Under the pieces are notes generated by a model, which made no database searches, had not been told where the DNA came from, and saw only the letters and a program-made list of their open reading frames with translations. A stretch of 64,000 nucleotides of DNA from Blasia pusilla (lineage: Eukaryota). This document shows positions 5,141 to 60,464 of the stretch, in pieces; the stretch's first letter is position 1; the number at the start of each line of letters is the position of its first letter. The position numbers and the translations under genes are program-made. The stretch covers positions 47,368,001 to 47,432,000 of the forward strand of contig CM114271.1 in assembly GCA_050084515.1 (NCBI GenBank). The letters are read 5' to 3'.

Positions 5141-5152
5141 TGGTATCAGAGC
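5141..5152 (+). promoter_or_regulatory. Primer-binding site (tRNA-iMet type); second copy at 5445-5456
   Basis: TGGTATCAGAGC two bases after the LTR-terminal CA at both positions. Confidence 0.9.
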
Positions 5153-24070: not shown

Positions 24071-27000
24071 CAAAATGGGAGCATGAAATCATTTAAACAT
24101 ATGAGTCGTTGCTTATGACTCATCTTTACTAGGCAAGTGAAACAAGTCTGACTCGTCGTGACTAGTGGGTATTGAAAACTTCTTTAGTCATAAGGAGATG
24201 ACTCAATGAGTTGTACGACCCTAAATTTTATGACTAAACCATTTAAGTACTAATTTGAGTATTCTTTTGGTGAGTCATTTAAAGTCTAGTCATAAAAACC
24301 ACCCATTTCTTCTAGTGATGGAATGGACCGAGAGTTTGGGGTTGGGTTGGAAAACCTGAACCAAGTCTATGGAGGAGATTTTAGACATCCCTCTTGGATT
24401 TCACCCCACGACTGAAATCTTACTTGGGTCTCGGTTTGGAACTCACACAAGGTCCGTTGAACAGTTGGGATCGCTAGGCGCGCAAGTGCCGTTTTAGGTT
24501 CCTGGACTAATCAAGAAGTCTGTTCCAAGTCTTGAAGGTGGGTTGAGCTTGATGAGACGCCGAGTTGAGAACTCGGTGGGTTGAACGCTGGTTGGCCCAG
24601 ACCCGACTAACGAGAGTGCGTGTTTGGGTGCAGATCGGCGATGAGATCGTGTCCTACTGAACGTACGCTTCCGCAACAATAAAGACTAACGTTCAAGGAG
24701 AGTAGGGGTGCGACATTGCTAGACTCAACTCATCTCAAGTCTTGGTTCACGTTTAGTCCGCTTGGAGTTTGTTTCATTATGAGGGTCGCGACAACATATG
24801 CCATCCTCGAGAACACCCATCCTTCGAGGCAACTTGTGGTAGCTCGGGGCGAGTGGGCGTGAGAGGGGGAGTAAGGAGCAAGGAGCAAGCAAGCAAGCTT
24901 GCTTGCTTGGGCGTTAGGCAGTTTTTGTAGGATTTGTGATTTGAGTGTTGTATAACTGGTCACCCATCTTTGGGCTATTCTGCATGGAGGACGCTTGACT
25001 ACTGAGTTCTTAACTATGCCAGTGTACACACTGGTGTAGCTCATTTGGTGCTGTTCGGAGATGTGTTAGGCGCTTTATGCATCTCAGGTTTTTGGTTGAT
25101 GTACCTCTAGCACATAGTACGGTGTAGCCTCTCCATGCAGGTGATATTTTCAGGTGCTGCGAGTCCGACTAGCACGTCATCAACCCCGGCGGAGTAGCTT
25201 TTGCGTTAGAATTGTGTGGTGGGTTCTGTGGATTCAGGGGGCGTCACGTTTGGTGGATTGTGTTACCTTGATTTCCATTTGCGATTGGAGGATTGTCATT
25301 GGACTTCCTGTGTTTGGATCCCCTCCATCATTGCTTCTTGCTTGCGCGCCCATTGTTAGGATTGACGCTGATTTCCAGAGTAGTGTTACTCCTGTGTGCT
25401 ACCGATAGTGAGGTTGGAGTGATGACGAGTAGACCGTGGGAGGCTTCTTGTGGTGATGACACGTTAGGTTGCCTACACCCATAGCTAGTAGAGCTAGAAT
25501 AGTATAGCAACATCGACGTCACTTGGTTACTTAGTGGTGATAATTTGGTGGTGGTGCGGCATCGGCGTTGGTCATCACGGAGCTGTCGGGTGGTCTGGTT
25601 GGGGACCGTGGTGCGGACAGTGGTGGTTTCACACAGAGTGGATTTAGGAATCGGCTACCTTTTCCACTTCTGACGGTTGATGAAGAGGAGGACGAGGGTG
25701 TTCCAAACACCAAGTCTTCTACGTTGTTATCGAGTGTTGCAACTCCATTGATTTGGGACATGGACGGGATATATGGGGCCATGAAGGGTCCACGACGATA
25801 CTCGAGTGCAGTGGGCACCATTGAGTTGGAGGACTTCATGCAGGAGTTTGATACGTGGTGTGATATGCAGATGTTGCGGAATGTTCAGAACCACCATCGT
25901 TTAGCCCAGTTGCAGAGTTCTTCAAGAGGTTGAAGAAGAACTATTAGGGAGTGAAGACAGAGAAGTTGAGGAGTCTTCAAGAATTTGAGCAAAAGACTGG
26001 TGAGAGTCTTTGTGAGGCATACACTCGTATGCGATGCTTGATTTCAGTTACCTAGGGTGTGAGTGAGGCTCAGGCAGTCCAGTTTTGGTATGGAATCTTG
26101 GACAGAGAGTTGCGCCGCAGGGTACGTGATGCTACTCTTATGAGTGATGATTCACCCACATTGACCCATGTGTTTGCTCTATCTGAGAAGATTGAGCTTA
26201 ACATGATGAAGGAGAGAGTGGTGACATCCGCATTCAGTAGGGATTCAACTACTATTTCTCGTGTTCAGCAGCCCACCTCACAGTCTCGTAGTAGTGGTGG
26301 TGGTCGTAGTAGTGGAAGTCGTGGGGGGTACACACGACCTCAGTCAGGTCCTAGAGGGACACTTGCGCAGAGACCATTGCCTTCATTTGCTGCCCCGCAG
26401 CAAGGACAATCATGTTGGACATGTGGAGGTGATCATGTTAGGAAGTTTTGTGCCCAAGAGGATGGGAGACGGACTTTGGAGGATGGGCCTCAGTTGGCCC
26501 CAACTCACTGTGATCATTGCGGGAGACCAGGTCATCCTCGAGAGCGTTGCTTTGATCTTCATCCAAAGTTGAGATCAGGCCGCGGCCGTGGTGGAGTACC
26601 TCCGAGAGGCCGAGGTGGTAGAGGTGGACCAATGGTTGGAGAGCCTACGGTGGCCACCCCTACCACTACGACAGAGTCAGCTATGGCTGCCAGGATTGAG
26701 CAGTTGGAGCAGAAGTTGGCTACTATGGCTGGTATCCAGCATAGATCAGGTTCGGGAGCAGGGGCTTCCATCTCTTATGGAGGGGATCATCTCTCTTATA
26801 TCGTGAGTGCAAGACCTGAGTTGAGGCATCAAGCTGCGATTCGAGAGGAGCCACTCGGCGTCGAGCCATGTGGTGCTCTTGTGGAGTTGGACCCCTGAGA
26901 GGATGAGGCGGGGAGGCGAGGCTAGGCTTCCCGAGTCATTCTTGTTGTCTGAGGTGCTAAGGACTCCATCCATGGTTCCTACGTAGCCTATTGAGCCGCA

Positions 27001-28156
27001 GTGGGGGGACCGAGGCATCTACATTGCGTGTAGTAGACACGGATGCAAAGCATCGAAGGCAAGATGTGCGGATGGCAACCGGTGTTGGGATCCCCATTGT
27101 TTTCGGCCACGAGGCGATGGCTTTAGGAGTTGACTTAGTTCTTGTATTTCAGCTAGCGACCCGCGTTGTGTGAACGTGGGGTGTATTCTTGCTACACGTC
27201 TTTGAGGTGGATGAGGGTGTTGCGGTGGAGCGACCCTCTATGTCGGTGTAGCATTGAGTACTTGTGCTACTTAGCGGCAAAGCGGCGAAGATGGATGCAT
27301 TACCAGCCCAGCCAACCATTGATCGTGAGAGGCTTACACCTTGTGTATGTATGTTGGACAACCGGAGTGGGATATTCCGATTGGTGAGTCCTACATGACA
27401 TGTGTATAGACCAAATAGAGTCTTGTTAGACTCTGGTGCCCAACCTTTGATGTTGGGAAAGGCGGCATGTATTGGTTTGGGTATTTGGAGGTCAGAGCTT
27501 GAGCCTTGCCCATTCCAGATTCAAACATCACTTGGAGGAGCCAATGATAGGTCTCAATTTATGACACGGGAGAAGTTTTCTGTACAGTTGAGACCAGATC
27601 ATGCGACTGATAGCTCTTGATTGGGAGTATCTGCGGTAGTCACATCAGCCGAGTCGTATGATGTACTAGTTGGAGGAGCAACATTGTACCCGATGGGTTT
27701 TGGATGGATTCTTGGGTCGAGGCGGCGTCTTATAGACCTGGTTGGCAGTCCGGGGATGGACGTATGAGCCAAGTTCTTGTGAGATTTATTTATGGGGCTC
27801 GACCAGGAGGGTCTTCCCCAACGGTGTTAGCATCTGTGGCTGGTTATAGTGGAGTAGTCACTTGGCCAGGAGACTTTTTGGAGGGTAATGTTTTTGCTAT
27901 GGATTCTCGTGTGCATGAGGAGGTAGAGGAGGTCCCTATTTTTGCAGCAGTGGCATCCTCATCGTTGGATGTGCCACTTTGGAGTTCAGGCGGTGCACTA
28001 CGGCAAGAGGCTGATCGCCTAGTGCAGGAGGCTTGGTGTGAGGTTGTTATACCTCACGAGGAAGAGGAGGCCCCACGGCGGAATCCTACTTCTGGTCCAA
28101 TTGGATTATCCCCTTTGGATTCTGCACCCATTGTATGGCAGTATCCGCCGGAGGGC

Positions 28157-29100
28157 ATTTGTGTGTTAGATCTCTTTGGTGGGATTAGCACTGGTTTGGC
28201 TGCAGTGTTGCAGGCCGGTATTCCTGTGCGGAGATATGTGTATGTGGAGCAAGATGAGACGGCCTAGAGAGTCTCATCCCGACATATTGGTCAGTTGATG
28301 CGGAGATATCCTGAGTTGTTGCCGCCATCAACTATTCGTGAGTACCAGCGTGCTTTGCCGTCACACATTGCATTGTTGGGGGCGCAGGACCTTGAGAGGG
28401 TTGGTCCTGTGGATTTGGTGATTTCTGGATGGCCATGTCAGGATCATACACGTGCTGGTCGTGGTGAGGGATTACACGACCCTAGGTCTCGATTGGTTTG
28501 GGAGATGTTATGGGTGTTATGACATCTTCAGGTTCATCAGGCACATGCTCTAGCTTACATTCTGGAGAATGTTCCATTGTTGGGTGACACTCGGACCCGG
28601 ATGATGGCGAGTGTTCATGAGGTGCGGTCTTGGATTGGACCAGCGGTGTTGTTGGATGCAGCGCGAGTTGGCTCGCGTGCACATCGTCCACGCTTGTGGT
28701 GGACAAACTTGTTGCCTAGGGAGGCTCTACGTCGAGCATATGATGCAGTGCAGCGGGATCCTTGCGTTACAGTGGATAGTATCTTAGATACTGGGCGACT
28801 TTCTCAGGTGGTGAGGGTTATTGATCGATCACCCATGGCAGTGGTGAACCGTGTGGGCCAGCCTAGGATGGCACTACCCACATTTGTGAGTTTTCCCTCG
28901 TCACATGCCTACAGGGAAGGTGGTCCCGGGCTTGTATGGGATTCTCATGTGTGCGGCGATTGGTGGAGCCTAACGCTGATGAGAGAGAGCGTGCGATGGG
29001 ATTTGCTACTGGCGTGACAGAGGTTGCTTCCATTTCTGAGGCTTCACGACGTCATGTGTTGGGTAGGCCATGGACCTGAATTTTTTGACTTGGATTTTGA
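28157..29100 (+). pseudogene. DNMT3-like DNA (cytosine-5) methyltransferase domain inside the polyprotein
   Basis: Motif I LDLFGGI (28166-28186), motif II YVYVE, motif IV DLVISGWPCQ (PC 28433-28438), motif VI LENV (ENV 28565-28573), motif VIII AHRPRLWWTNL (RxR 28685-28693), motif IX ERERAMGFATGVT (from 28981), motif X SRRHVLG. Confidence 0.9.
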
Positions 29101-32100
29101 GTCTTGGTATGGCCGAGCAGCGTCGACTTTGGACTAGGTCTGTGGGTCTTCCACCCCTTGTAATGAGCTCGATGGCTATCGGGACGGTAGAGGCATCGGC
29201 TGGGGGCGAGGAGAGTAGTATTTTGCATCCTTGGAGTAAATGGGATGTAATGGCTAGGCATGTGGAGTTGGTTGCTCATGCTGGTGGAGGAGTTATTTGC
29301 TCAGATGATGGTGTAGCTAAGGGTGTACCATCTTGTGAGGGGATTGCATAGTAGCCAATGGCATCGTCCTCTCCCTCTAGTGTGCCAGTGGAGGAGACTT
29401 GGGAGCCATTACTTGGGCCCAAGCTTACGGGAGGTGAGAAACGACGCTTGACACAGTTCCTACGTGCTTATAGGAGTTGTTTTGCCTTTCGCATGAAGGA
29501 GTTGGGTTCTCTGGTTGGACCCGGTATACGGATTGATTTGGCTAGTGATACGCCAATCTTCTGTCGTCTCTACCGATATAGTGATATGGAGAGGGACCTG
29601 ATTCAGAGTAGAACGTTGGACCTTTTGGAGGCTGGATTAGTGGAGTTGTCGCATGGAGAGTATGCATGAGCCACTGTCATGCCTGCTAAAAAGGATATGC
29701 ATGGCAACTACACGGATACGCGGATGTGTGGAGATTACCGTCCTATCAATCGGCAAACCAAGGCCGATAGGTATGCCATGCCTACACCTGAGGAGATCTT
29801 TGATGTGGTGGGACAGGAAAAGATTTTCAGTACTTTGGATCTTCGGGCAGGATACCATCAATTGCCGATTCGGGAGAGTGACAAGGCCAAGACAGCATTT
29901 TGGGGTGTCAACTCTCATGGCAAGGATTGTTTGTACGAGTGGAAATTCTTACCCTTTGGGTTGAAGAATGCACTTGCCGAGTTTCAGAGAGTGAGGGACA
30001 GGATCCTAGCAAGGTTGGATTTTGTTCGGTGTTACATTGATGATATCTTGGTGTTCAGTAACACGGTGGAGGAGCATCGGATACATTTGCAGATGGTGTT
30101 TGAGTGGTTGAAAGCTTATGGTCTACGTTTGCATCCAGGAAAGTGTAAGTTCTTCCATGAGGATGTTGAGTACTTGGGTCATGTGATCTATCCAGGTGGT
30201 TTGGGAGTGCAACAAGCAAAGGTGGAGGCTATTGCACTTATTCCGCGTCCGGTAGATGTGAGTAGAGTTCGAGCATTCATGGGATTGGCGAACTACTATC
30301 GGAGGTATGTGAAGGGATTTAGTGCTATGGCAAAGCCTTTGAACCAATTTCTGAAATCAGATCAAGAGTGGCACTGGGGAGATGATCAGGAGAGAGCTTT
30401 TGTGGAGCTTAAGGCCCAGTTGGCGGCGGCGCCTATCTTGAGGAGACCTATCAGAGGGCGCCCATTTCAGTTACACACTGATTGGAGTAGGTTGGGACTT
30501 GGAGCGGTGTTGACACTACATGATGATGAGCACATGGAGTTTGTGGTGGCCTATGCAAGTCATTCAAATAATGCAGCGGAGTCGCGCTATAGTTCATATG
30601 AGGGAGAGTGCTTGGCAGTAGTGTGGGCTGTGACACACTTTAGATGTTACTTGTTTGGCACACAAATTACCCTTGTTACTGATCACCAACCGCTCAAGTG
30701 GTTGATGGAGTCTGACAAGCTTACAGGGAAGCTAGCACGGTGGGCTCTTATCTTACAGGAGTATGACTTCCAGGTGGTACATAGATCTGGAGTTGCCAAC
30801 CTTGATGCTGATGGGTTGAGTAGGAATCCATGTACTAGCCAAGAGGATACAACTGGGGCTAGATGGCATGGCGAGGTTGATTAGGAGATGGTGCAAGGTT
30901 GGCATGCATCCGCCTTTTTATGTTGGTTAGGGGTGGACTCTAGTATGGAGGACCACATGACATCTTACTCTAGTCAGAGGGTAGATGGCCAACCTTCAGA
31001 TTCTAAGGTTGGAGATGGTGGAACAGATCAGCGTGATATTCATGATGATGCGTTGGTGTTGGAGTTCCTACGGAGCAGTAGGGTGCCAGGCATAGTGAGT
31101 GCCAAGGAGCAAGACCGTGTTCTTCAACGTGCTAAGAGGTATCGATTGGAGGGAACACATATTCTCCGTGTGTGGGAGGATGGTAGAATACGAGTAGTGC
31201 CGGATTTGGCTCAGAGAGAGTGCATTGTGCGACATGCCCATGAGGAGTTGGGACATTTTGGGGTAAAGCGTACGTATAGCTTACTCCTTGGTCAGTATTG
31301 GTGGCGAGGCATGCATACTCAGGTGCAGCAGTTGGTGTCACGTTGTATGGTTTGTGACCGGGTGAGGGCATCATTCAATGCCCCTATACCACAGTTATAC
31401 CCCTTGCCTATTATGGGGTTGGATTACCGTTGGAGTGTGGACTTTGCGGGACCGTTACCGTTGACTGTACGAAATCATGGATATGTGTTGGTGATGGTGG
31501 AGCACTTCTACAAGTGGATTGAGTTGGTGCCATTACCTGACAAGGCAAGTGAGGGAACGGCGTATGCGTTTCTTGATAGAGTGCTTAGTCATTTTGGTGC
31601 ACCAGCTGAAGTGCTGACCGACCAGGGTACAGAGTTTCAGGATGAGTTTCATGTCTTGTGTGACAAGGCGTTGATTGATCATCAGACCATGTCTCGAGAT
31701 CATCCAGAGGCGGATGGTTTGGCTGAGCGTGTGGTTCAGACGGTGAAGAGGGCATTGCGCAAGTATGGCCTCTGAAGGGCATCTTGAGACCAGGATATTC
31801 AGTTGCCATGGTAAGCCATGGGGTATAGGTTCAGTCGCCAAGCATCCTTGGCTTCCTTCTCACCTTATTTTCTGTTATACGGCTAAGATCCAAACTTGCC
31901 AGAAGCAATTCGTTGGGCGTCTAGTGAGGTGGTGAACCTTGATGACCCAGAGATGTGGATGAGAGTCTGTTCTCAGCGGGCAGAGCTCTGGCGGAGAGTT
32001 TTGCCAACAGCCTTTGAGAATCTTGCCATTGCTCAACACAGGGATACGTTGCCGTATGCAACCATTCGGGGTGGAGGTTATCGACCATCGATTCGTAGGT

Positions 32101-32333
32101 TCCATGTGGGGGACTATGTCTATTTGCAGCGGATTGCACCAACAACGTTGGATGTGACGGCAGGCCGCACTATTTTACGAGTGCGCGAGGTGTTAGCTTA
32201 TGGAGTTCTCATGTTGGAGGGTCGTGATGGAGTTGTTTGGAAGGACCATATGCGTAATTGTGCGCCATGTCATCTTCCAAATGTGGATGTTACTGTTGAC
32301 CCAAGCTTAGCCATGATACGTGCTAGCTTGAGG

Positions 32334-32468
32334 TGCATGTTGTGTGGGTCTGCTGGTAACGCAGCCCGTATGTTGGTGTGTGATCGATGTTCTAGGGGTT
32401 GGCACATGATGTCTTTGACTCCACATATGGATGTTGTTCCTACTGGAAGGTGGGTTTGTCCTCGATGT
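32334..32468 (+). other. PHD zinc finger at the integrase C-terminus
   Basis: CMLC...MLVCDRCSRGWHMMSL...GRWVCPRC fits C4-H-C3 spacing. One Cys is lost here but present in copy 2 (HMLCL). Confidence 0.88.
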
Positions 32469-33211
32469 ACTTAGGAGGGGTAGATTACTTGATCTTTGCA
32501 TGATATGGATTACAGATGTGCGACTAACGATGGGGCAACCTAGCACCCGGCCTTCTGATTCGTGCACCCAAGAAGGTGTATAGCATGTAGTAGATGTATA
32601 GGGCTACCTGGGAGTTAGAGGGACCTAACCGCCAGTTAGGGGGGCGAATTGTGGTACACTTGTGTTTGTGGATGCTCTCGTCTATGTTATGTATGTATGT
32701 GAGTATGGTATGTCAGCGATGTATATTGTATGATGATGTGGATTCGCACGACAGCTGTCATGACCTTACGGATTATGTCGTAGAGTATAGTGTGCTAGTA
32801 GAGGCCATACCTTATGTAGAGCCATAGTGTCTAGGTAGAGATGCGATTTCATACATAGGGTTGGGGGTTACTCAGTTGAGGGTGACTTTTCCAATAGGGC
32901 CCGCTCTTAGGTTGGAGGATATAAGGTGCAATGCACTCAAAGTTGAGCCTGTTGCGTTGGGAGTTAGCCTTGGTAGTGAGTAGAGCTCTTGGCTATGATG
33001 TTTCTGGCAAGCTTCGACCTAGATTCTCCCATTGTGGAGTGGGTTTGGCTCGATTGTATGTGATTCTATACGTATTTTATGACAGTAGGTCTTTCACGGA
33101 TTTCAATTGTGGTACACTTGTGTTTGTGGATGCTCTCGTCTATGTTATGTATGTATGTGATTATGGTATGTCAGCGATGTATGTTGTATGACGATGTGGA
33201 TTCGCACGACA

Positions 33212-33340
33212 GCTGGTTGGCCCAGACCCGACTAACGAGAGTGTGTGTTTGGATGCAGATCGGCCATGAGATCGTGTCCTACTGAACGTACGCTTCCGCA
33301 ACAATAAAGACTGACGTTCAAGGAGAGTAGGGGCGCGACA
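33212..33340 (+). repeat. 3' (U5) end of LTR-A
   Basis: Near-identical to 24587-24715. Followed by AGCAA, which also lies at 4034-4038. Confidence 0.88.
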
Positions 33341-33750
33341 AGCAAGGTTGGTTGCCAAAGAGATGAGAACCAGGTTTGGAACGCGACTAGCATTTGGGGT
33401 TTTGACTATATTTTGGACCATAACATTTAGTTATGAGATTCATTTGGGAAAAATAAGATAGCGTTAGAAATCTTATGCAAATTCACTTCCAATGCACCAA
33501 AGATCTTAGCAAACTCAAAAGCAAAGGCTGAGATATTTGCCAAAAACAACTATATGATGAGTTTAGTTGAGGGCAAAAATGAGGGGCTTAATTGTAAATT
33601 TTTTGTGCGCCTACTCTCCTTGAACGTAAATCTTAAGTGTTGCGAAAGCGTGTGTTTAGTAGGAAATGCTCTCATAACTTATCAATACCCAAACAAGCAT
33701 TCACGTTAGTCAGGTCTACGTCAAACAGCTCAAGTACTCGACTCGGACTC

Positions 33751-47123: not shown

Positions 47124-47410
47124 TTCCATAAATTACTTGGGAGGTTGGTAAAACGATTCCCATAACTAGCTAGATAGTGGTCGGTTGCTAATCGTGACAA
47201 CCCATGGGATTTGGTTGCTTGTTGTGACAATAGCCAGTAGTGTAGCAAAAGTAAAAATTGGCATTCCATAAATTACTTGGGAGGTTGGTAAAAAAATTCC
47301 CACTACTAGCTTGAGAGTGGTCGGTTGCTAACTCTGAGAACCCATGGGATTTGGTTGCTTGTTGTGACAATAGCCACTAGGATAACAAAAATAAAAATTG
47401 GCATTCCATA
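47124..47410. repeat. Two tandem copies of a ~140-bp unit
   Basis: TTCCATAAATTACTTGGGAGGTTGGTAAAA...AACCCATGGGATTTGGTTGCTTGTTGTGACAATAGCCA...AAAAATTGGCATTCCATA occurs twice. Confidence 0.88.
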
Positions 47411-49799
47411 AAAGCAGAAAATATAGAAAAAGGCCAAAAGAGCTTACCAAATTAACTTTGAGAGTATGAATTGTTGTTGTATCTTCTTTTCCTCCACTAC
47501 CACTCGAAAACACCTCTAATCCATGCATTGTCTTTGCTAGTTCCCCCCACCTACATCAACTTCAGATGCCCTCAAATGATCTAAACGTATGGGTGTTCTC
47601 CTCCTCCAAGTTGCGTGACTACAATTTTTTCTTATACCTGAGATTGTATAGTCAACACTCACACCCATCAACGCATGAATTATGTTCAATACTCATCACT
47701 AAGGAAAAGTGGTCTCTGAGTGACAATATCCACACCAAATTCTTCACCATAATTAGAAAATATGCCTTCTGTCTAGATGAATGAATGAATGAATGAATGA
47801 ACTATGGTAGGAGTAAAATCTATTTGGAATTTTTGATCAATGAAGTAAACACAATATGTTTGGAAATTGTGACTTACGAGTTAGACTTCCTCATATTGAC
47901 ATCCTCGGGTGACAAACTATCGCCCACCAAACCAATAACAAAAATCCACATGCACCTACTGATCCACTAAGAGAATCGAGTTGGTTTGGCATATTCGATT
48001 CACCAATTGCTTTTAGTATGTCTAATAACCACGGGTGATCAAAAAGTGCTCCAAAGTTTGCATGCCTCGATCCATCATGAAGGATTTTTTGGGTTGTTAG
48101 ACAATCCCTATCTATGATCATCCTCTCCGTGGTTTGGAAATCTTGAGCCACCAAAATACTTGTTACCTTCAATGTGGAAGTAGTAGCAACTTATGGAAGT
48201 ACTTGGTCAAATAGGTTGCCTACTACATGGAATGCTTTCTTTGAAAATTATTTTTTAAGATGATGATAATAATAATACTAAAAATCATTGAAAAAATCTT
48301 ATTTTAAAGGGGATTAGTTAAGTAAAGCAACAACCATAGGCATGTTGGTTTGATATTCTTGTAAAACTTAAAGGGATCCCGTCAAAGTAGTACGTCGTAT
48401 AAAAGATTTCGTATAAAATCTTTATTTCTTTTTGGAAAAAAAAAGAAAACAAACGAGATCTCATGGAATTTCAGCTCGTAGGCTTTCCCAAGACATGATT
48501 CTTTGCCATAGGCCCGTTCCTTCCTAGCCGGTGCATCATTGATGTTAAGGTTGGTCTCTATCATCCCGTTGTCGATATCTTAGCGATCTCAAGCTGTCAT
48601 CTAATTTGGGATGGCTAACGTCCTTGCCACAATCTATTTGTGCAGATACTACCATGGCTTTAATTTTGCCACACACAACCTTCAACACCATCGACTTTGC
48701 CATTGTTGTACCATACCGCTTATGACCACAACATATTATTGAGGATAATCGAGGTGCGTCAATATCAAGGAGTACGTGCACTTGATTAGATGACTAGAGA
48801 AGTTTGGTCTTACAACAAGTTAGGGTCGAGTTACAATTTCCAAGGAGAGACATCGATATTTTGTTTCAAGTTATCCATTCTAGGCCCTTGTCCTACAATT
48901 GTGAAGGATTTCGAGTGTTAGGTTTTTGTTATAGATTTTGGTTTGAGGGTATGCTGTGAGCTTCATTGATGTATGAGAGTAGGGGACATAGACCTAAAAG
49001 GGATGCTCAGAGTGATATTATTTTCCTTTGTTGACTAGGGGATAGGCCAACATAAATTATTTCCTACCCACACCGCTTGTTGCTATGCCATCCACATCTA
49101 AGAGTGAAGGAGTGTAGGTTTGAGTCCCACACATTTGTAGTTTCAAGTGATTGAGAGTTTACTCGTGAGGGTAATAGTGATCGTGTGAAAGGTGCATAAG
49201 TATCACCACAGGTTTCGTGGTTCTGAGAGGTGACCTGTCAAGAATAGCAATGGCAAGGAGGGTTTACACAAAGTGGTATGAGGTATCGAGGAGGGATCGA
49301 CTTGAATTCCCTCTAAGTCATCCTCAAACGGAGGAGAGACTTCAGAGGAGTTCCCTACTACTTCACCCTAGGCATTGAGTGGTTCCAACATGTGGGCCTA
49401 AAAGATGGATGACCAGGGTAGAGGACCACATAGGTTTCTAAGAGCCGTGGGAATCATCGAGTTGTACAACTTTATTTTACAGTTTCAAAGTAAGTGCGAC
49501 TCCCAGAGGGTGAGGAACTCCCGAGAGTTCAACCTTTTCGCAACATGAAACGACATGTTTCAACTTTTGGAGGGATGGCCGACGGATGACTAGCATGAAT
49601 TCTTGAGTAGGTTTTTAGCGTAGATTGAGGCCAAAAAAATTTACTACGATCCACGCTTTGTGTCATGGATAGAGTCATTTGCAAATGAGGAGGAGATGGG
49701 AAAAGCTACCTCCTCCACTACTAGCGAGGCCTAAGGAGGGGTGACTCATTGAAGAATTATTGTATTGTCTAGTCAAGTTAGTCCAAGGTTCAACCTTGT

Positions 49800-52700
49800 G
49801 GTTGAGTTCTTTGCGAACTTGAAGAGGAACTACTAGGAAGTACAAACCAAGCAGATGAAGAGATTCCATGAAATCCAATCAACGGATTAGAGAAAGTTTG
49901 CACAAGGCGCTCACATGCTTGTTGTGGAAAAAGTGCTAAGCAAGCATAACTGGTGGAAAATGGCTCACACACACCACCACCACCACCACCATGGAGAACA
50001 AAATTTGCAATGAGAGAATGAGTGGAGGCTGGTCCCTTTCTCAATTTTATAGGGTATGTACAAGCAACCCTAACCCTAACCTTAGTCTCAAGCTAGACTA
50101 ACTGTGATTAACTAACCATGGTTAAGATAATCGCGCTTAACTGCCTAACCAAGATTAAGCTTCCCCTACTTTGAATGAGTACCAAATATAGCAGTTCAAG
50201 TGTCTCATGAGCTTGACTGTAACTCAACCTTCAATACTCCCCCTCAAGCTCATATTGATATCTCTAACACCTAAATCATTTCTAAACACCCCAAACTTAT
50301 CTCTCGACAATGCTTTTGTAAACATGTCAGCGATTTGCTGATCTGTACCTATATACACAAGATCTATTTCTCTTGCAAGTACTTTCTCTCTGATAAAATG
50401 ATAGTGCACCTCAACATGCTTTGTACGAGCATGAAACACATGGTTATTAGCAAGCTTGATGCTACTAATATTGTCTGTATATATTACACTAGGTCCTAAG
50501 TTACTAACACCAATCTCAACAAGTAATCGATGAAGCCATAGTGCCTCATATGCTGCATTGGTTGCTCCTCTGTACTCAGCCTCTGTTGAAGATAATTGTA
50601 GGTTGCTTCTTTGAAGCCCAACTTATAGCTGCGCTTCCCAAAGTTAATGAATAACCAGATGTGGAGTGTCGATTAGACACGCTTCTTGCCCAATCAGCAT
50701 ATGTGAATCCTTGTAATTGAAAACTCGGAGAAGGTTCAAACTGAAGCCCGAATTGAATAGAGAATTTCACATACCGCATAATCCTCCTCACAGCATCAAG
50801 GTGAGATTTTCGAGAAGCTTGCATAAACTGGCTCACTAGGCCAACAACATAGCTCAAATCTAGTCTGATTAAAGTTAAATAGATCAAACTTCCAATCAGG
50901 CCCCTCTACATATTAGAATCTGCAAGCAACTCTCCTTCATCCACTCTTAGCTTCAAGCTCTAGTCCAACGGTGTAGAGATTGGCTTACAAGTCGTTATAC
51001 CATATTTTGAAAGCATATGAAGAGTTTATTGTCATTGTAGTAACTACATGCTTTCTCCAACTTTGATAAACTCAATACCAAGGAAGTACTTGAGTTCTTC
51101 CAAGTCCTTCATATCAAATTCTGCTTGTAACTTAAGCTTGACTTGTTGTACCATTTCTTCAGTACTCCCAATAATCAGGAGGTCGTCAACATACAACACA
51201 ATGAGAACCGTATGATCTTGTCCTCTCAAGACATATAACGAGGAGTTAGAATCACATACCCTAAAACCCAACTCTTGTAGGACGTATGTAATCTTGCCAT
51301 ACCAAGCTCTTGGAGCTTGTTTGAGCCCATATAGAGCTTTCTTCAACATGCATATGTAAAATGGAAACTTGGGATGCTCGTATCCAAGTGGTTAAGTCAT
51401 ATATATCTCCTCGTATAGATCTCCATTCAAGAAGGCATTCTTGACGTCCATGTGATGTAATCTCCACTTCTTACTTATTGCAAGTGCAACCACTGTTCTC
51501 GTAGTCGCCATCTTTGCAACGAGGCTAAATTTTTCCTCATAATCGATACCATATTGTTGTGCACAGCCCTTAGCCATCAATGTCGCTTTGTATCTATTAA
51601 TTGTACCATCTTGATTGCGCTTGATTTTGTAAACCCATTTGCAACCAATATCTTCCTTATCGAAAGGTATATCAACCAGCTCCCATGTTTGTTGATGTCT
51701 AAATGCAGCAAGCTCTTCCTCCATAGCTTCAATCCATTCGACTTTACTTGCAGCTTCTTCAAAACAACTCGGCTTATGTTCTTGAAGGGTAGTTATCATA
51801 TATGCATGATGTGTTGCAAGAAAACCTTCATTTATGAATCTATGAACTGGATGTGTAACTCTACTTGATCTACGAAGTTATTGTTCAGAAGTAGATGCCT
51901 TTGGCACCTGACTCAAGCTTTGACTAGTGTCAACAGACTGAATACGTATTCTTCCCGTCCATGGACCCACATATTTAATTGATGAATCCAGGACCTTTCC
52001 TAATCTTGCACTAGTACTTGGGGAAGTTGAAGACAACGTTTGTTGGTTTACAGTCATATTCTCCCCCTCAACAGACAAGTTTAGAGGTGGAATAGGCTCA
52101 GACAGAGCATACCATGACTTAAGCTCATCAAAGACAACATCCCGACTAATAATAAGCTGCCTAGAGGATGGAATATAGCACTTATACCTCTTAGTTCCAT
52201 CAGCATAACCAATGAAGATACATCTTTCAGACTTAGGGTCTAATTTTTGACGTCTCTCAAAAGGAACATGAGCATAACAAATACACCCAAATACTTTCAA
52301 GAAGGAAAATCAGATTTATTTCCTATGAAGACTTCAAAAGGTGTTTTATCATGAACTCCTGCTGTTGGAGTTCGATTGGAGCTACAGCCTCTGCCCAATA
52401 GACCTTAGGCATGTTCTTATCATTCAACATAGCTCGTGCCCCTTCAGCAATATGTCGATTCTTCCTCTCAGCCACTCCATTTTGTTGTGGAGTGTAACGG
52501 CAAGTCACTTGACGTTGGATGCCATTCTGACGTAAATAGTCATCAAATTCTGTTGAAAGATACTCTCCTCCTCCATCACAATGTAATTTCAGAACGTGTT
52601 CTCCAATCTGCTTCTCTAGTAGAACTCTGAATGTTTGGAACACTAAGAATACCTCTAACTTGGCTTTCAGAAAGTATACCCATATATACCTAGATCATTC

Positions 52701-54725
52701 ATCAATAAATGAAACAAAGTAGTGGCAACCACTAAGGCTATATTGTGATGCTGTCCACACATCACTGTGGACAACATCACAACATAGCCTCCAGGATATC
52801 CAATATCCTGGATGCTCTTCTACTTTGCTTTGGAAAAGGAAATCTAGTTTGTTTTCCAAATTGGCAAGCAGGACATGCCTCTAACGTAGCAGGACTCGCT
52901 AATTTAGGGAGTCCTATTACTATATTAGGTGATGAAATACTTTGTAATCTTTGAAGATTCATATGTCCAATTCTTTTATGCCACACATTTAGATCTGTGA
53001 CTTGTTGGCCGGTTTGACCATATATTGCCGTTTGAATCTCTGGCATAGAAACATCTAATTTGAACATTCTGCAAGATCTAGTTCCTTTGGCTATTTTAGT
53101 CTGATCATCCATTGTTTTAATGAAACAATCATCTGCGTTAAACTTCACCTGATAACCCTGTTCTACTATCTGTCCTACAGAGATCACGTTTCTTTCAATG
53201 GTAGGAACATAGAAAACATTTCCAAGAGCACAAAGACCATCTGATGCTATCGGAACTTTACCGGTATACGTAATATGATGTTGAGTGTCATCTCTTGTGA
53301 GCACAATTTCAGGATCTTTCACCGGCTCCAAACTATTGAACCATTTAGCTTTTGAGGTCATGTGATTCGATGTACCAGAGTCAATGTACCAATCTACTGT
53401 CGAGTCTTTCTTGACCATTGCTCCCATATGATGAGTCATGACCAAGAGATGCTCCGTTTGTGAATCTTGTTCTTCTTGGTACTGCTCTTGGTCTTGTTGC
53501 TCCACATATTTTTTTTGCTATAAGGCTCATGTTCTCATATTTGCCTTCTTCTTGAAGCAAAAATTTGCATAATGACCCTTTATCCCACAGTAATTGCAAG
53601 ATCAAGGGAACTTCTGCTGATGACCTCGACCCCAACGGTTTCCACCATCATCACCTTGTGATTGTGTGTGGTACTGGTTTGTAGTTCATTGTGCAACGTT
53701 ATATTGAGTGCCTCTTCCTCCATATGCTTGATATCCACCACAACCACGGAAGTTTCTGCCACGATCTATGCCTGTGTTTGATCCATAACCTGCAAATAGC
53801 GCACTCTCTTGCAGACTAGACGAGTTACCGCTGCCTACTAGACGCATCTCTTCATTGATTAACAGAGGAACTAAATCTTGAAAGTTTGGATACTTGTCTC
53901 TCACAGAGATAGAGGTCTCAAAGGACTTGTATTCCTTTGGAAGGCCTTGAAGAGCGAATAAAATCAGATCATCATCTTCTCATGTCACTCCAATGCTATT
54001 CAACTGATCAAGAATATGTTTGATACTCAAAATATAATCATTGATGCTCTGCGATTCTTTCCTCGCTTCGTTCAATTGTTGTTTCAATTGAAGCTTTCTG
54101 GCCTTTGTAGATGTTTGGAACAACTTTTCCAATGCATCCCAGGCCTCCTTCGGAATATGAATATCTTGAATATGACCTATCATTGGCGAAGTGATCGTTA
54201 TTGAAATGTAGTGGATTACTTGCCTTGCATGTTTGTTCCAGGCACGAACATTCAAGTCTGTTGAGTGACCTTCTGGCTTGGCCTCATCACCTGTGACAAG
54301 CTCCCATAGTTCTTGGCCCATGAGAAATTATTTCATGCGAAACTTCCAAACATTATAATTTTTCTTATCTAGCTTCTCGCTTGTGATTGCTGCTGAGGAA
54401 TACTCCATGATGAACGATTTCACTCACAAAAACATAATTTCAAGCTTTCTACTGCTCCAATTGAAGCATAGACCACTCCTACACAGAAATCGACCTGAAA
54501 TTTGCCAAAATTGATCAACTGTATGAAAGAACTAGTTCAAATTGGCCTATAGAGAGCAAACTGCACAACTTTTCTTCACTACGTTAGACCCTAAACCCTA
54601 ACTAACCCTATTTAAGATAATCACGCTTAAGTGACTAACCAAGATTAAGCTTCCCTACTTCGTCTGAGTACCAAATGTAGCAGTTCAGGTCTCTCATGAG
54701 CTTGACTGCAACTCAATCTTCAATA
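49800..54725 (-). mobile_element. Ty1/copia retrotransposon with internally deleted 5' LTR
   Basis: Direct repeat ~50115-50236 vs ~54600-54725, minus-strand polypurine tract AGGGGGAG next to 50236, copia domain order. Left boundary and TSD (CTTGT/CTTGC) are tentative. Confidence 0.82.
50224..54408 (-). pseudogene. Copia gag-pol with stops and frameshifts
   Basis: EKLDKKNYNVWKFRMK; WYIDSGTSNHM; WHKRIGH; DGGGEY...YTPQQNGVAERKNR; CKWVYKIK; MDVKNAFL; LKKALYGLKQAPRAW; YVDD; ADWA; HARTKHVEVHYHFIRE. Confidence 0.93.
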
Positions 54726-57700
54726 CTTGCAAGCATTGATTAGTGTCTCTTAAGGAGTGATTGAGGTCCACGTTGTCCAAGCAAGTAACAAAACACTAGA
54801 ATGTGATTTGAGGAGAAGAGTGAGGGTTGCAACTTTTCTTTTATCACACCTTAGCTATTTTGAGAGATATTTTTGAGGTGGTTGGGCGTATTAAGGGAAA
54901 AATGGCAGAGGAGAGTGTAATGGCCTTGAGCTACCTGAGAGAGATGTCGTGAGGAATGACCACTCCACAAATGTAGTAGCGTCCAGCTAGAGAGTGAAGT
55001 GTGCCATCTAGGGTGCTTGGAGGTTAGTAAGAGCCCATGAGGCTGAGGCATATGCCATCATATGTGGGCCAACAACAGCCGAGAGTGACTTTTTGGGCAT
55101 GTGGTGGGGCCCATCATCAACAAGATTGCAAGTGCCAAGGGAGTGGACATGCCTTTCTAGCCTTATGACCAAGTCGACCTCCATCCAAAACCTTCCATTG
55201 TGACCAATGTGAACGGTGTGATCACACCCGTGAGAGGTGCTTTGCGCACCTCACACCCTTAGTTACAACTTCATAGAGAACGTAAGAGGGTGCAAAAGAG
55301 AGTTGGAAGACCGAGTGCAACTAGAGGGTGCGGAACAAGAGGACCAACAAGTGGTCCCATGGGAGGACAAGGTGGTAGACATGCTTGTAGAGATGGGCAA
55401 GGCCCGCCATCTAGACGAGTCGAGGGAGGTCCCACTTCTGAGGCTGGGATAGGGCCTAGATTGAGCAAATTTAGCAACAGATTGCAGCAATGACGTTCAG
55501 GTTACTAGATTTGAGATCAATGGCATCAACCTCTTATGGAGCAGGTAGGGATTCAGAGGCTCTCGTGTGGATGTGCAGGTCTCCACAGATGGAGGCAATC
55601 ATCGTGGTTACACGTGGAGCAGCAACATAGTTGGATCCATAGAGACGCAAAGCCAAGAAGCAAACCGGGCTCCATTTGTTACTCAAATTGTTTGAGGTGA
55701 GGAGGACTCCTCCATGGGACCTATTTAGAGTTCTTGGAGAATAGATGGTGGTGTTGGAGTGTTGATATCACAAGTAATAGGTAGAATGAGAGCGACCATG
55801 TCTATTTCCAAGGCTCAAGAGGAGCCCATACCAAGTTCCATGCTAGGGGAAACCATAACATTATACAGCACCCTATTATTTTGTGCTTCTGATGTTATAG
55901 CGTTGGGAGGTACGTCTATCAACATGTTTCGATTGGCCGCCACCATATGTGAGCATGGAGGTGATTTTTATGCCTCATTATTAGAGGTCATTGTAGAGGA
56001 GTTGGTGGAATTTCCCTCGGAGCTAATGCTCAGGATATTCACCATTGGTTCATATCAAGGTGCGGTTGCTCGATTGGTGGAGTTGCCAACTAGACCCGCT
56101 ATAGGGCGTGCTATGGTTTCACCCGGAGTGGTATCGTTGGACAACCAGAGTGAAATCTTTTACTTGGTTAGTCATATAGGTTTAGTTTATTGTCCCCAAC
56201 GTGCCTTGTTGGATTCGGGAGCACAACCTTTGATGTTGAGAAAAGGAAATTTTAGGGGCTTAGGATTGACTCATGCTAATATGGAGCGATGTCCATTACG
56301 CATTCAGATGTCATTGGGAGGAGCTAGTATGACCCAATTCATCACCCGCTAGAAGATTACAACGAGGCTCATGCTAGAGCATCCGAACTGATGAGTCCGT
56401 GGTGCGTGCCAAGGTGATAGTGACCAATGCCAAGTCCTACGATGGCTTGGTTGGTGGAGAATTGAAATATTATACCCAATGGCGTTTGCCCTAGATTATT
56501 GGGAGGAGTCGACCTTTCATAGACCAGGATGGAAGTTCAGTGATGGATGTATAAGCTTGTTGCCACTTTGGCTTATTGGCAGTGTGATCGGCAATGACTA
56601 GGAGATCGAGGTGGCAACCTTAGCTGCATTCAATCGTGCCATCACCTAGCCATGAGATTTTGTTGGATGTAGCAAGTGTTGGATCACGTGGGCATCATTT
56701 GAAACTTTGGTGGACAAATTTGGTGCCGCATGAGATGATGCAGAGGGATTATGTTAGTGTGGATTGACCCTCTTTTTTGTTGGTGGATTTGACCTTGGAT
56801 CCTGGGCGTTGATTGCAGGCACTGAGGCATCGTAATCAATCTCCGTTAAGTTTGGTGAATCAAGTAGGCATACCTAGGGCAACACTTCCCACACTAGTGA
56901 GTTTTCCCGCCCCCCACGTCTTTAATGAGGGTAGCCCAACAATTAGTGGAGCCCAATGTTGATGAGTAAGTGCATACGATGGGGTTTCCAACAAGAGTGA
57001 CGGTAGTATTGTCATTGACAAAGGTGCTTGACACCATGTGCTTGGCTAGGTTATGAACCTAAATTTTATTACATGGATTATCATCCTAAGATTAGCTAAA
57101 TAGCGTCATATGCAATTGAGGCACATCACCTCTGAATCCTTAATAAGCCCTTAGACGGTACATGCCTTGGCTAGGGCCGATGTGGGAGAAGACCTAGAGG
57201 TCACAAGTGATCGTGGGAGATATCTTTGGAGATCGTGGGATGTGATGCAGGTAGACCTAAACATGGCAACCATAACACTTGATGTTGGCTAGGGCATTGA
57301 TCGTCAAGGAGTGTCGAGAGTAGAGAGATCTAAATTGGCTGCATGAGAGTATATCAATATATAGCAATGGTATTGACGAGGTTGCACAATAGCAACCAAA
57401 CCCCATGTTAGAGAGTCCAACCATCACGTTGGAAACTTGTGAGCTAGACATCATGCCCAAGTTGATAGGAGGACAATGACGCCACATACATAAATTTGTG
57501 AGGAGTCACAAGAGCTACTTTACATTTAGGGTGTAAGATTTGGGTACACTAAAGGGTCCAAGGATCCACATCAAATTGTCTCGTGCGATGCTTTGGTAGA
57601 GACCAAAGGTTTAGTCAAGTAGGTCATAGATGACCTAATGGGAAGTAGGGTAACCTACTAGAATATGTTTCCCCTTTGTGTGGACCCACTTGGAGGTCAT

Positions 57701-58550
57701 ATAAGAAATTTAATATTTAGAGTAAGTTCCCAATTTTATGAGCTTTGACTTTCTATGGTTGTAACGACTTGCCTCCAGTTGATTTTTTCAAGGCCCTTGG
57801 GAGGCTACATCCTTGCCGAGTGGTTTGGCATTCCAACTTTTGTGAATGACTTCCATCCTTACACAATTTGTTTGTCAAGATGCCTCCCTCTTTGCACCAG
57901 CACTTGGATGATCTCTCTCTTTGCACGAGCACTTAGATGATCTATGTGACTTTCTTATGGTGGTTTGTCATGCTTGGTGTGTGAAGAACTTCGAGATTCT
58001 TTGCCCCGGGCTATGGTGTTGTGGACTCCATGAAGCCCCCCCTCTTACTTCCCATGGTATCTCCGGTCTTATTCTTATTGATGCATAGCCTCTATTTTCT
58101 CTAGAAAACTTGCCTAGGGGAACGCGTCGAGGAATCTAATCCGAAACGTCGCCAGTCGAAGGACAGGCTGAAACCCGGCCCGCTCTCTTCCAAGCTCCCT
58201 CCTGCTTGCGTGGGGTGACTTGGACCCGAAAGCCCGCGTCGCACAAGGGAGGACGATGCTCCACTCTTCTCCTCCTGTCGTTCGGCCTCCCTCTCCAGCT
58301 CTCCGCGCCAGCGCTACTCGTTCGTCAAGCGATCGGTTTGTGTCGCGAGCTGCCATCGGAGGGAGCGGACTTGGACTTTCATGATTTGCTTGGCGTCTTG
58401 CAGATCTTCCGTCTGTGTTTCTGTGGCGGTTTCCGCTCGTGCGTTGTGCTCGGGCGAGCTCTGCTCTGTCTGCTGTGCTGCGAGAGATCCACGGACTCAG
58501 TGTCAGGTGTGGTGCGAGAGATATAGGAACTGATTGTGAGGAGAAAAAAA

Positions 58551-60464
58551 ATGGCGTCTGCTCGCACGGCCGCTGCTCTAGCGAAGAGGATCAATTCCTC
58601 TCGCGCTTTCGTGGCTCCGTCTGCTGTTGTGCGGTCGGTCTCGTCAACGCCGCAGTTGCTGGAGAAGGCGCCGGAGGCCTCGTCGAGCGCCGGGAAGACC
58701 AAGGCCTCGAAGTTTAAGAAATTCGCGATATATCGATGGAATCCGGATCAGAACAGGAAGCCGACGCTGCAGACGTACAGCATCAACACCAGTGAGTGCG
58801 GCCCCATGGTTTTGGATGCGCTGCTGAAGATCAAGAATGAGCAGGACACCGGATTGAGTTTCAGGCGGTCATGTAGAGAGGGAATTTGTGGCTCTTGTGC
58901 TATGAACATGGATGGGAAGAATGGACTTGCATGTCTGACGAAGATCGACTCGGAGTCCACGAAGGAGACTCTCATCACTCCGCTGCCGCATATGTTCGTC
59001 ATCAAGGATCTGGTGGTGGATATGACCAATTTCTACAATCAATACAAGAGCATCGAGCCGTGGCTGAAGAGGAAGACGCCCGTCGAAAGTCCTGGGAGGG
59101 AGGTTTTGCAGAGCAAGAAGGACCGGGAAAAGCTGGACGGGATGTACGAATGTATATTGTGCGCTTGTTGTAGCACATCTTGCCCTAGTTACTGGTGGAA
59201 CCCCGAGAAGTATCTCGGACCTGCTGCTCTGCTACACGCCCACAGGTACGAAGTTGTCAGATCTACATATTTCTCCGTAGAAAATTATGTCGTTACCCGC
59301 TCGCGTTGGTATTCGGTTTTTCCTTCCGCAGTTCCTAGTTCAGTTCATTAGGTTTCTTCTTCGCGTGATTTCTCGCTTTGAATATGCCTGAAATCTCCCA
59401 ACTTCGAATAGTTTTGTAAGTCTCCAGAGTCAATTTCAAGTGTGTTGTAACAGCGGCTCAGCAGACGAAGAAGTCGTCCTCCTTGCGCTTTGCAGTACAA
59501 GCCCTCGTAAAGTACATCAAGCGAAGTCTTTTGACTTCAATTAGTTTCGAAAATATTGAGGACCAATTTGTAGTGCCAGAAAAAAAATCCTACCGTAGCA
59601 CAATCTGTGGCGTACACCCATCGTGGTTGGTTGTTCTCATGCTAATGTCAAGCCATGCTAACCAATTCCTCTTGATGTAACAAAAGCACATGACATGTAG
59701 ACCACAATTTTCGAAGTGAAAGTTGGAAGTGGTCCAATAGATTTGATGGTCCCTTGGAGGACCCAGAGAAAAAACATGCTTAAATTAAAATTGATACCTT
59801 TGGGGGAATACCGATGGATGTCTTTGCATAGTGGCATGAGAAATTCTATGAGTAGCAACATTGACGGAGCCACTGGTTGTTGCCATAGTGTTTGCCGTAG
59901 GGAACCTCCTCGTTTGCTGTTCAGGTATTTTCTGGTTTATCGTGTAACAGAAGAGACAGAAAAACTGGGAGCATTTTACAAGTTGATATCGTGGTTTGAG
60001 AGAAAGTCTATCAAGTCAACCATCGAATGGTTTTGCTGTGATAATGCCTAAGCAGCTGACATAATTAGGATTTTTGGAAATTTTTTTCTCCGGATCGTGC
60101 AACATTCTCATTTGTGTGTAGATCAAATCTGATGGTAGAGAGCAAATCACAATTACTACTGAGATAGCCAGAGCAGGCCAAGAGGCATAAAGGATGCTAC
60201 AAAGCCCGGTAATTCAAAATCATGTACATCCCTGTCCTATGTCAGAATTCCAATTCCATCAGTTAACACAACCAAGCGCAATGTGTTTGCAGGTGGATAG
60301 CTGACAGCAGAGACGAATTTACAAAGGAGAGATTGGAGTCTATTGACGATGAATTCAAGCTATATCGGTGCCACACTATCATGAATTGTGCTAATGCGTG
60401 TCCAAAGGGATTGAATCCCGGTATGCAGATTCAGAAGATCAAGCAGTTGCAGGTCAGCCGGTGA
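58551..60464 (+). CDS. SDH2: Mitochondrial succinate dehydrogenase iron-sulfur subunit; exons 58551-59245 and 60293-60464
   Basis: Presequence, then [19 protein letters not shown] and [22 protein letters not shown] intron joins to R-WIADSRDE...[18 protein letters not shown]...VSR*. Confidence 0.96.

Follow-up and report, generated by a model that had tools for sequence, protein, structure and literature searches.

The stretch of DNA analysed here (hereafter the window) comprises 64,000 nucleotides of the genome of the liverwort Blasia pusilla (positions 47,368,001 to 47,432,000 of contig CM114271.1, assembly GCA_050084515.1) and contains two copies of a family of Ty3/Gypsy long terminal repeat (LTR) retrotransposons with a domain related to Dnmt3 DNA methyltransferases between the protease and the reverse transcriptase (RT). 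Copy A (~24.6-33.3 kb) is a full-length but broken element, and copy B (~49.4-50.1 kb and 54.7-57.6 kb) is a decayed copy from a second, older lineage, in which the methyltransferase occupied the same position. The features of the two copies are the following, with the evidence in brackets.

24586..33340, plus strand: copy A, the reference Ty3/Gypsy-DNMT3 element, broken, ends approximate (direct repeats, read depth)
28094..29162, plus strand: copy A, predicted Dnmt3-type C5 methyltransferase with 2 stops and 2 frameshifts (three-frame reading, Pfam, PDB)
29349..29354, plus strand: copy A, conserved in-frame stop between the methyltransferase tail and the pre-RT segment, TAG TAG (family alignment)
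29670..32474, plus strand: copy A, RT, RNase H, integrase and C-terminal PHD finger (Pfam)
49405..49878, plus strand: copy B, 5' part of gag, separated from the rest by the nested Copia element (tblastn with Marchantia gag-protease-DNMT proteins, residues 4-180)
50109..54727, minus strand: Ty1/Copia element nested in the gag of copy B, separate from the Gypsy-DNMT element (repeats and domains)
54727..55243, plus strand: copy B, rest of gag including a CCHC knuckle remnant (tblastx to copy A)
56059..56328, plus strand: copy B, aspartic protease, LLDSGAQPLML (52% identity over 90 amino acids to A 27276-27545)
56387..56556, plus strand: copy B, post-protease linker in two frames, one frameshift (tblastx to A 27606-27769, 41-50%)
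56557..56602, plus strand: copy B, deletion junction of 46 nt (counterpart in copy A, 27770-28591, 822 nt)
56603..56938, plus strand: copy B, motif VIII and target-recognition region, 3 stops (45% identity over 112 amino acids to A 28592-28927)
56937..57065, plus strand: copy B, motif IX, EPNVDE*VHTMGF, reached via a frameshift, 3 stops (47% identity over 43 amino acids to A 28954-29082)
57041..57250, plus strand: copy B, motif X and post-domain tail, reached via another frameshift (tblastx to A 29058-29162)
57390..57398, plus strand: copy B, remnant of the conserved stop context, TAG CAA CCA (frame of the pre-RT segment)
57432..57581, plus strand: copy B, pre-RT segment, end of the copy (46% identity over 50 amino acids to A 29394-29543)

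In translation, positions 54727-57581 of copy B are collinear with 26029-29543 of copy A. The tblastx comparison of 53000-58200 with 24000-34000, of a kind that the first-pass annotation of this DNA had suggested, was significant and yielded nine collinear plus/plus segments with a sum E-value of 2.7e-78 (gag, the CCHC knuckle, the protease at 56059-56328, two linker pieces, 56603-56938, 56937-57065, 57041-57145 and 57432-57581), along with four extra off-frame echoes; at the nucleotide level, blastn detected only three short pieces of 56-113 nt with 72-75% identity. Within gag, the 54727-55243 region matches A 26029-26142 at 50% identity in tblastx, and HCDQCERCDHTRERCF is aligned with HCDHCGRPGHPRERCF of A 26506-26553; family proteins align over 54739-55723. 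The 5' part of gag, at 49405-49878, is recognized by tblastn at 29-35% identity with E-values down to 8e-21, and also by weak collinear tblastx segments to A 25784-25989.

The first-pass annotation had proposed that 56660-57085 retains methyltransferase motifs VIII-X between the protease and the pre-RT segment, with motifs I-VI deleted, and had paired four peptides from this region with counterparts in copy A. All four pairs are found in place: frame 1 of copy B reads LLDVASVGSRGHHLKLWWTNL, then LVNQVGIPRATLPTLVSFP, then HHVLG*VMNLNFITWI (asterisks denote stop codons), LVEPNVDE*VHTMGFPTRVT lies one frame over, starting at 56937, and the partner peptides are located at 28640-29100 of copy A. 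The position of the remnant and the deletion are likewise borne out by the collinear segments. Copy B steps from A 27769 to A 28592 within 46 nt, where copy A has 822 nt that encode the remainder of the linker and motifs I (DLFGG), IV (PCQ) and VI (ENV), all of which are missing from copy B, and family proteins skip ~240 residues at this junction. The 112-residue piece of copy B taken alone gave no PDB match at E up to 10, so its identification as a methyltransferase remnant rests on the family and not on the piece itself: compared with a profile of 14 family sequences, it is matched with an E-value of 6.9e-24 and 46% identity (hhalign). Given that copies A and B also share non-enzymatic linkers and a TAG-CAA-CC stop context (see below), the two share ancestry as whole elements.

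Copy A displays the order gag with a CCHC knuckle, protease, a domain of ~330 residues, RT, RNase H, integrase and PHD finger, with Pfam matches to RVT_1 (E 7.8e-31), RT_RNaseH (1.3e-34), Integrase_H2C2 (7.7e-16), rve (1.2e-11) and PHD (1.8e-8). The succession of protease, RT, RNase H and integrase is that of Ty3/Gypsy pol, with RT and RNase H of Gypsy type, and the same order is seen with clean open reading frames (ORFs) in the related locus L044. At the C-terminus of copy A, no Pfam match to a chromodomain was obtained at E up to 0.01, and the PHD finger is found instead, unlike in chromoviruses. Copy A is not intact: ~11 of its 1970 codons are stops, and several frameshifts are present. Its ends are marked by a 129-nt direct repeat (24587-24715 and 33212-33340, 96% alike) which extends by a further 44 nt (24716-24759 and 34754-34797), the 3' copy being split by a nested 1.4-kb element; copy A yielded no target-site duplication. 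Sequence likeness among copies reaches upstream of this repeat to 24318, and reads show 'goes back' joints; another pair of repeats (32647-32757 and 33105-33215, 97% alike) precedes the 3' repeat immediately, and the layout is blurred by nested insertions.

Read in three frames, the methyltransferase domain of copy A contains motifs I (DLFGGISTG), IV (GWPCQ), VI (ENV), VIII (GSRAHRPRLWW), IX (ERERAMGF) and X (LG-AMD) in unrearranged order. The read-through sequence with X at the stops passes the Pfam PF00145 threshold (E 5.8e-7, 29.7 bits vs a cut-off of 22); single ORF pieces of the domain gave no Pfam match at E 0.01. In the PDB, the domain is matched by DNMT3A (7.5e-12), DNMT3B (5.7e-11) and DNMT3C (9e-9), and more weakly by plant DRM (2e-4 to 0.07), M.HaeIII (0.03) and DNMT2 (0.3). 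Judged by these sequence matches, the domain is a predicted C5 cytosine methyltransferase closest to Dnmt3. In alignments of 14 and 16 family members, motifs I, IV and VI show little or no variation, the catalytic motifs are kept across the 16, and residues 880-1200 of a Marchantia family protein fall in the ESM Atlas under 'C-5 methylase', in streptophyte and phage clusters. Like the host Dnmt3 enzymes (human DNMT3A and DNMT3B, plant DNMT3), the family domain has the unrearranged I-IV-VI-VIII-IX-X order and an SxAHRxR-x-WW motif VIII; unlike them, it is devoid of PWWP and ADD domains and of introns and is embedded in a Gag-protease polyprotein.

Copy B is a dead relic, a remnant rather than an enzyme gene, as follows from its stops and frameshifts, the absence of RT and integrase, and the nested Copia element. 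It contains 16 stops in 482 codons, one of which is the conserved stop and ~15 of which are stray. Nine stops and at least two frameshifts fall within 56603-57250, where motifs VIII-X are recognizable but not in one open frame, and the protease has 90 codons without a stop. In motif VIII, both arginines of the family HRxR are replaced (GHHLK), in a context (H-R-x-R-x-x-W) that is invariant in the family alignments, and motif X has a stop inside, LG*VMNLNF vs LGQAMDLN in the family. No match to RT, RNase H, integrase or the C-terminal PHD part was found for copy B in 47000-58200, and none after 57581. The nested Copia element is delimited by direct repeats of about 130 nt (50109-50238 and 54599-54727, 88% alike), with no target-site duplication resolved for it; its minus-strand ORFs, in at least nine pieces, match Retrotran_gag_2, gag_pre-integrs, rve, SH3_retrovirus and RVT_2.

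The stop between the methyltransferase tail and the pre-RT segment occupies the identical codon in 30 of 30 sequences (29 close loci and copy A), 25 of which read TAG CAA CCC ATG, and the family context is TAG/TAA-CAA-CCC. Among 16 other loci, two (L045 and L066) have a stop-Gln pair displaced by a few codons, and the rest, including the 12 most distant, are without a stop there. Locus L044 consists of two clean ORFs in the same frame separated by a single stop, one of 1369 amino acids (protease, DNMT) and the other of 1047 (RT, RNase H, integrase, PHD); no terminal repeats are present within its contig. At the collinear place, copy B reads GCA CAA TAG CAA CCA, 42 nt before the pre-RT segment, compared with 45 nt in copy A. 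Because the conserved stop comes after the methyltransferase, the enzyme belongs to the Gag-protease frame. The UAG-CAA sequence resembles the leaky context of tobamoviruses, and its conservation suggests that stop-codon readthrough may serve as the gag/pol switch in this family.

The relationship of copy B to the rest of the family was assessed over ~400 columns in which it has residues, with seven proteins from Marchantia, two from Calypogeia and 22 of a Sphagnum-type group. The amino acid identity of copy B is 46.5% to copy A, 46.3% to Marchantia, 45.5% to Calypogeia and 46.5% to the Sphagnum-type group, whereas copy A is 72%, 66% and 75% identical to these three sets, respectively, and crown members are 63-75% alike. 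In the phylogenetic tree (FastTree), copy B is the sister group to the crown clade, with SH-like support of 0.95 for the crown alone and 0.97 for the clade that includes B. Since a sister of copy A, however decayed, would still resemble A more than the other crown members, the equidistance of copy B indicates that it is likely to represent a separate, older lineage and not a decayed sister of A.

The family is not confined to Blasia. The domain of copy A retrieved 34 longer proteins with 36-75% identity, namely 18 from Marchantia polymorpha, two from Calypogeia fissa, two from Sphagnum and 12 others, and those that reach far enough read gag-protease-DNMT or protease-DNMT-RT-RNase H. Metagenome contigs scanned with motifs I and IV as seeds gave 432 stretches encoding relatives, of which 80 were kept; among these 80, the loci reaching far enough have the order protease-DNMT-RT, as in the window. 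A HMMER scan of 1.84 billion representatives produced 2465 matches at E <=1e-3 and 161 at E <=1e-30. Among 193 fetched proteins carrying the domain, it lies after gag or protease or before RT in 39 and after RNase H or before integrase in 87, and the remaining 67 show only the domain. The RNase H-DNMT-integrase layout with a C-terminal PHD finger occurs in Scenedesmus (annotated 'pol'), Chlamydomonas eustigma, Monoraphidium and many metagenome contigs (proteins P0047, P0069, P0092 and others have the Dnmt3-like domain between RNase H and integrase); cluster look-ups show that Closterium and Mesostigma also carry the domain. In the green-algal Gypsy elements, the Dnmt3-like domain is 32-40% identical to that of copy A (E down to 1e-51) and is combined with the same Gypsy RT, integrase and PHD, but it is located between RNase H and integrase and not, as in the liverwort family, between protease and RT. 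Either the methyltransferase module moved within pol or it was captured more than once. No description by name of either placement was found in the literature.

Host reads were taken from sequencing runs under the same species label as the runs that contain this stretch, the DNA sample being ~1% of one run. DNA depth on the body of copy A is ~1000-1300x, vs 22-50x on the flanks, and does not dip over the methyltransferase; the high depth extends from the 24302-24735 bin through the 32982-33415 bin. The flanks are themselves repeats and not single-copy sequence, and A-type copies are at least ~20-50 times deeper. Most reads are 90-99% similar to copy A. At the places of its frameshifts, 28948 and 29064, 59% and 79% of the DNA reads, respectively, and 38-91% of the RNA reads differ from copy A, so most of these lesions are private to copy A. 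In three RNA runs, coverage extends from gag to the C-terminal region at 10-180x, and the first mate maps mostly to the minus strand, which would denote sense transcripts provided that library preparation followed the common stranded protocol. Thus, the A-type family is present in the host in high copy number, keeps the domain and is transcribed. For 55900-59300, no RNA run was among those listed in a search of indexed sequencing runs. In the three RNA runs, 16, 30 and 46 reads link 30996 to 32000, with seven letters of other sequence in between; the 1% DNA sample contained no read of this kind. The joint may reflect an expressed, internally deleted variant without most of the integrase and not a canonical intron (its ends are CA..GT).

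Selection was examined at two depths. Over 383 aligned codons of copies A and B, the proportions of nonsynonymous and synonymous differences (pN and pS) are 0.348 and 0.675, with non-overlapping bootstrap intervals, and codon positions 1, 2 and 3 differ at 0.38, 0.31 and 0.59. For the null expectation, the copy A segment was evolved neutrally to the same overall distance and passed through the same tblastx selection in 40 replicates. The observed pN/pS of 0.52 lies below all 40 simulations (mean 0.87, range 0.73-0.97); because the neutral simulations also gave tblastx matches, detection by tblastx is in itself no evidence of selection. Within the family, the median ratio of nonsynonymous to synonymous substitution rates (dN/dS; pairwise Nei-Gojobori, copy A vs 50 close loci) is 0.21 for the methyltransferase (0.18 for motifs I-VI and 0.25 for VIII-X), compared with 0.16 for RT/RNase H, 0.19 for integrase, 0.15 for protease, 0.35 for gag and 0.34-0.42 for linkers. 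Between L044 and L045, both with stop-free domains, it is 0.10 over 294 methyltransferase codons. Most of the metagenome copies are dead, the methyltransferase domain being stop-free in only three of 47, and in the dead copies stops are equally frequent in the methyltransferase (153 in 14609 codons) and RT (113 in 10855), as expected after death. The 461 pairs of closely related metagenome copies give dN/dS of 0.36-0.79 for all domains and, the copies being mostly dead, do not separate the domains.

These results support past purifying selection on the element including the methyltransferase, in agreement with the first-pass annotation, which had taken the excess of protein over DNA similarity as a hint of such selection. 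A methyltransferase evolving at a ratio near 1 next to a constrained RT, the outcome that would have contradicted it, is not what the family values (0.21 and 0.16) indicate. The further claim that the domain was inherited through replication in distinct subfamilies and was not a one-off gene capture also holds up, given the gag-protease-DNMT-RT order in the Marchantia, Calypogeia and Sphagnum proteins and in the metagenome loci, the undiminished depth of host DNA reads over the methyltransferase, and the separate lineage of copy B. Taken together, the sequence comparisons show that the methyltransferase is an inherited and selected part of the element.

Several other features of the window adjoin or resemble the two copies. 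The 1.4-kb insertion that splits the 3' repeat of copy A (33341-34758) has inverted ends (33341-33403 vs 34696-34758, 83% complementary), and inverted copies of LTR-like sequence are found inside it and nearby, to ~35.7 kb. Tandem repeats of ~355-nt units occupy 22345-23957, shortly before copy A, with a DNA depth of ~22-27x. Further fragments of the same family lie at 2694-4434 and 4958-5545: the former region contains integrase and the C-terminal part on the minus strand, 47-70% identical to copy A at the amino acid level, beside a stretch 90-98% identical in translation to A 24318-24822, and LTR-like pieces are present at 5.0-5.5 kb; a large internal deletion has removed the methyltransferase from this copy. 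An unrelated Gypsy element at 7019-8805 has RT, RNase H and integrase 31-38% identical to those of copy A and no methyltransferase match. Downstream of copy B, with the start codon ~1 kb from its end, is a gene for the succinate dehydrogenase iron-sulfur subunit (58551-60464, at least one intron; exon 1 from 58551 to ~59250, a later exon at ~60290-60460), the best matches of which are from liverworts (Marchantia paleacea, 75%; Calypogeia, 75%; Riccia, 73%).

Gypsy elements of this kind are already known from a streptophyte alga. KnitGypsy-Dnmt3 of Klebsormidium nitens is a Ty3/Gypsy LTR element with an intronless, non-rearranged Dnmt3-type domain in its polyprotein, in which the key residues are kept and Ka/Ks is below 0.2 (de Mendoza et al. 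2018, PMC5890265). The liverwort family likewise has a Dnmt3-type domain in frame in a Gypsy polyprotein, without introns and in a streptophyte host, and its pairwise Nei-Gojobori dN/dS is ~0.2, and 0.10 in the L044/L045 pair. It differs in its hosts, which are liverworts and mosses; neither Marchantia nor liverworts are named in the running text of PMC5890265. KnitGypsy-Dnmt3 is described there with a DIRS-like repeat layout, and the likeness between the two is one of description. None of the 62 matches listed in our profile search of longer proteins is named as Klebsormidium, and the organisms named in the cluster look-ups were Scenedesmus, Closterium and Mesostigma. SymbioDIRS-Dnmt3 and SymbioLINE-Dnmt of Symbiodinium are also retrotransposon-borne cytosine methyltransferases under purifying selection, but these elements are a DIRS with a tyrosine recombinase and a LINE, reside in a dinoflagellate and are judged in the same paper to be independent acquisitions (PMC5890265). 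The EpiLTRs of Cymbomonas and Euglena (bioRxiv 10.64898/2026.05.21.726589) resemble the present family in being LTR elements that combine a cytosine methyltransferase with a chromatin-reader domain; they differ in that their DNMT is sister to DNMT4 and is located at the 3' end of pol, together with a Dam-like adenine methyltransferase and a chromodomain. The same preprint cites 'streptophytes (Gypsy-DNMT3)'. No report of a bryophyte Gypsy-DNMT was found in full text; figures and supplements, which lay outside that search, may list such copies. The possible additions made here to the known Gypsy-Dnmt3 kind are the position on the Gag side, the conserved stop and the two placements of the domain.

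Based on the above considerations, copy B is very probably an old dead insertion of a bryophyte Ty3/Gypsy lineage carrying Gag-protease-Dnmt3, the conserved UAG and RT-RNase H-integrase-PHD, which split from the lineage of copy A before the radiation of the Marchantia, Calypogeia and Sphagnum-type elements. The extreme decay of copy B, ~3% of the codons of which are now stops, raises the question whether it is no more than a strongly eroded sister of A within one subfamily, its low identity being due to neutral decay only. By our estimate, neutral decay of B plus A could largely account for the difference of 0.31 at second codon positions, and simulated neutral sequences at an equal overall distance are still detected by tblastx. 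This alternative is nevertheless improbable, given that copy B is about as distant from A as from Marchantia and Calypogeia, to which A itself is far closer, and that third positions differ at 0.59 vs 0.31 for second positions, with pN/pS under the whole neutral range. Another possibility is that copy B stems from a replicating non-autonomous deletion derivative without motifs I-VI, in which motifs VIII-X would possibly have served as a non-catalytic, Dnmt3L-like partner. Defective derivatives are common among LTR elements; the deletion in copy B is clean at the present resolution, 46 nt standing for 822 nt with the family register resumed on either side, and a variant of the A-type family with a 1-kb internal replacement (30996-32000) is seen among the RNA reads. 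On the other hand, no second copy with the junction of copy B is known (the metagenome scan started from motifs I and IV), the remainder of the copy is full of stops and frameshifts, and both arginines of motif VIII are gone, so this origin seems even less probable. Finally, resemblance by chance or low complexity, or a host Dnmt3 captured separately by another element, could appeal to the failure of the copy B fragment to match the PDB by itself, but is refuted by the collinear tblastx segments, the profile match and the stop context: the homology spans element-specific linkers on both sides as well as the stop context, which independent capture would not reproduce, and the probability of this explanation is negligible.

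The old-lineage interpretation of copy B, and the role envisaged below for the enzyme, have to be set against a number of difficulties. A branch lengthened by decay could pull copy B to the base of the tree (long-branch attraction), and the equidistance, which speaks against a close sister of A, leaves the exact split unfixed. The deletion in copy B either followed insertion or was carried by a replicating deletion derivative. The synonymous differences between A and B approach saturation (pS 0.675), which makes the ratio approximate; the codon alignments are anchored on protein similarity, the 50 loci are not independent, and closely related metagenome copies give methyltransferase dN/dS of 0.6-0.95, as dead copies do. 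UAG readthrough is inferred from conservation alone, activity has been shown for no copy of the family, and the Klebsormidium domain gave no methylation in yeast, a result that its authors consider inconclusive (PMC5890265).

Under the interpretation of copy B as an old insertion, neutral decay would have followed integration, with the loss of ~0.8 kb (motifs I-VI) and of everything from RT on and with the entry of the Copia element into gag. In an intact element, the enzyme would be made as the C-terminal part of a Gag-protease-DNMT product, in amounts exceeding those of RT if readthrough of the UAG is only occasional, and would be cut out by the protease of the element. The freed enzyme could then methylate, de novo, the DNA copy of the element itself or the DNA around a new insertion, and the PHD finger behind the integrase would help to choose chromatin for integration. 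The Dnmt3 domains of SymbioDIRS methylate CG de novo in yeast, and self-methylation of complementary DNA (cDNA) has been proposed for them (PMC5890265). A comprehensive scenario, in which a working Dnmt3 de novo enzyme made at the Gag level is packaged and methylates the cDNA before or at integration, the PHD finger steers insertion, and the module moved within pol in green algae, in a lineage older than the moss-liverwort crown, high-copy and transcribed, is tentative and, as a whole, rather unlikely.

Cytosine methylation is the main means of transposon silencing in plants, and a transposon that carries a de novo methyltransferase is therefore a paradox, one that in streptophytes has so far been documented only for the alga Klebsormidium. 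By itself, copy B is an ordinary dead relic; the conserved UAG and the two placements of the domain are the concrete leads. The window indicates that the Gypsy-Dnmt3 kind lives in liverworts and that the enzyme was kept through at least two old lineages, with copy B as a witness of the older one. In Marchantia polymorpha, a genetic model for which methylome data and mutants exist, the relatives of these elements would allow a direct test, in a land plant, of the benefit that a transposon derives from methylating DNA. If the comprehensive scenario is true, transposon-borne Dnmt3 would be a widespread and ancient feature of green plants and a possible source of 'host' methylation patterns in bryophytes.

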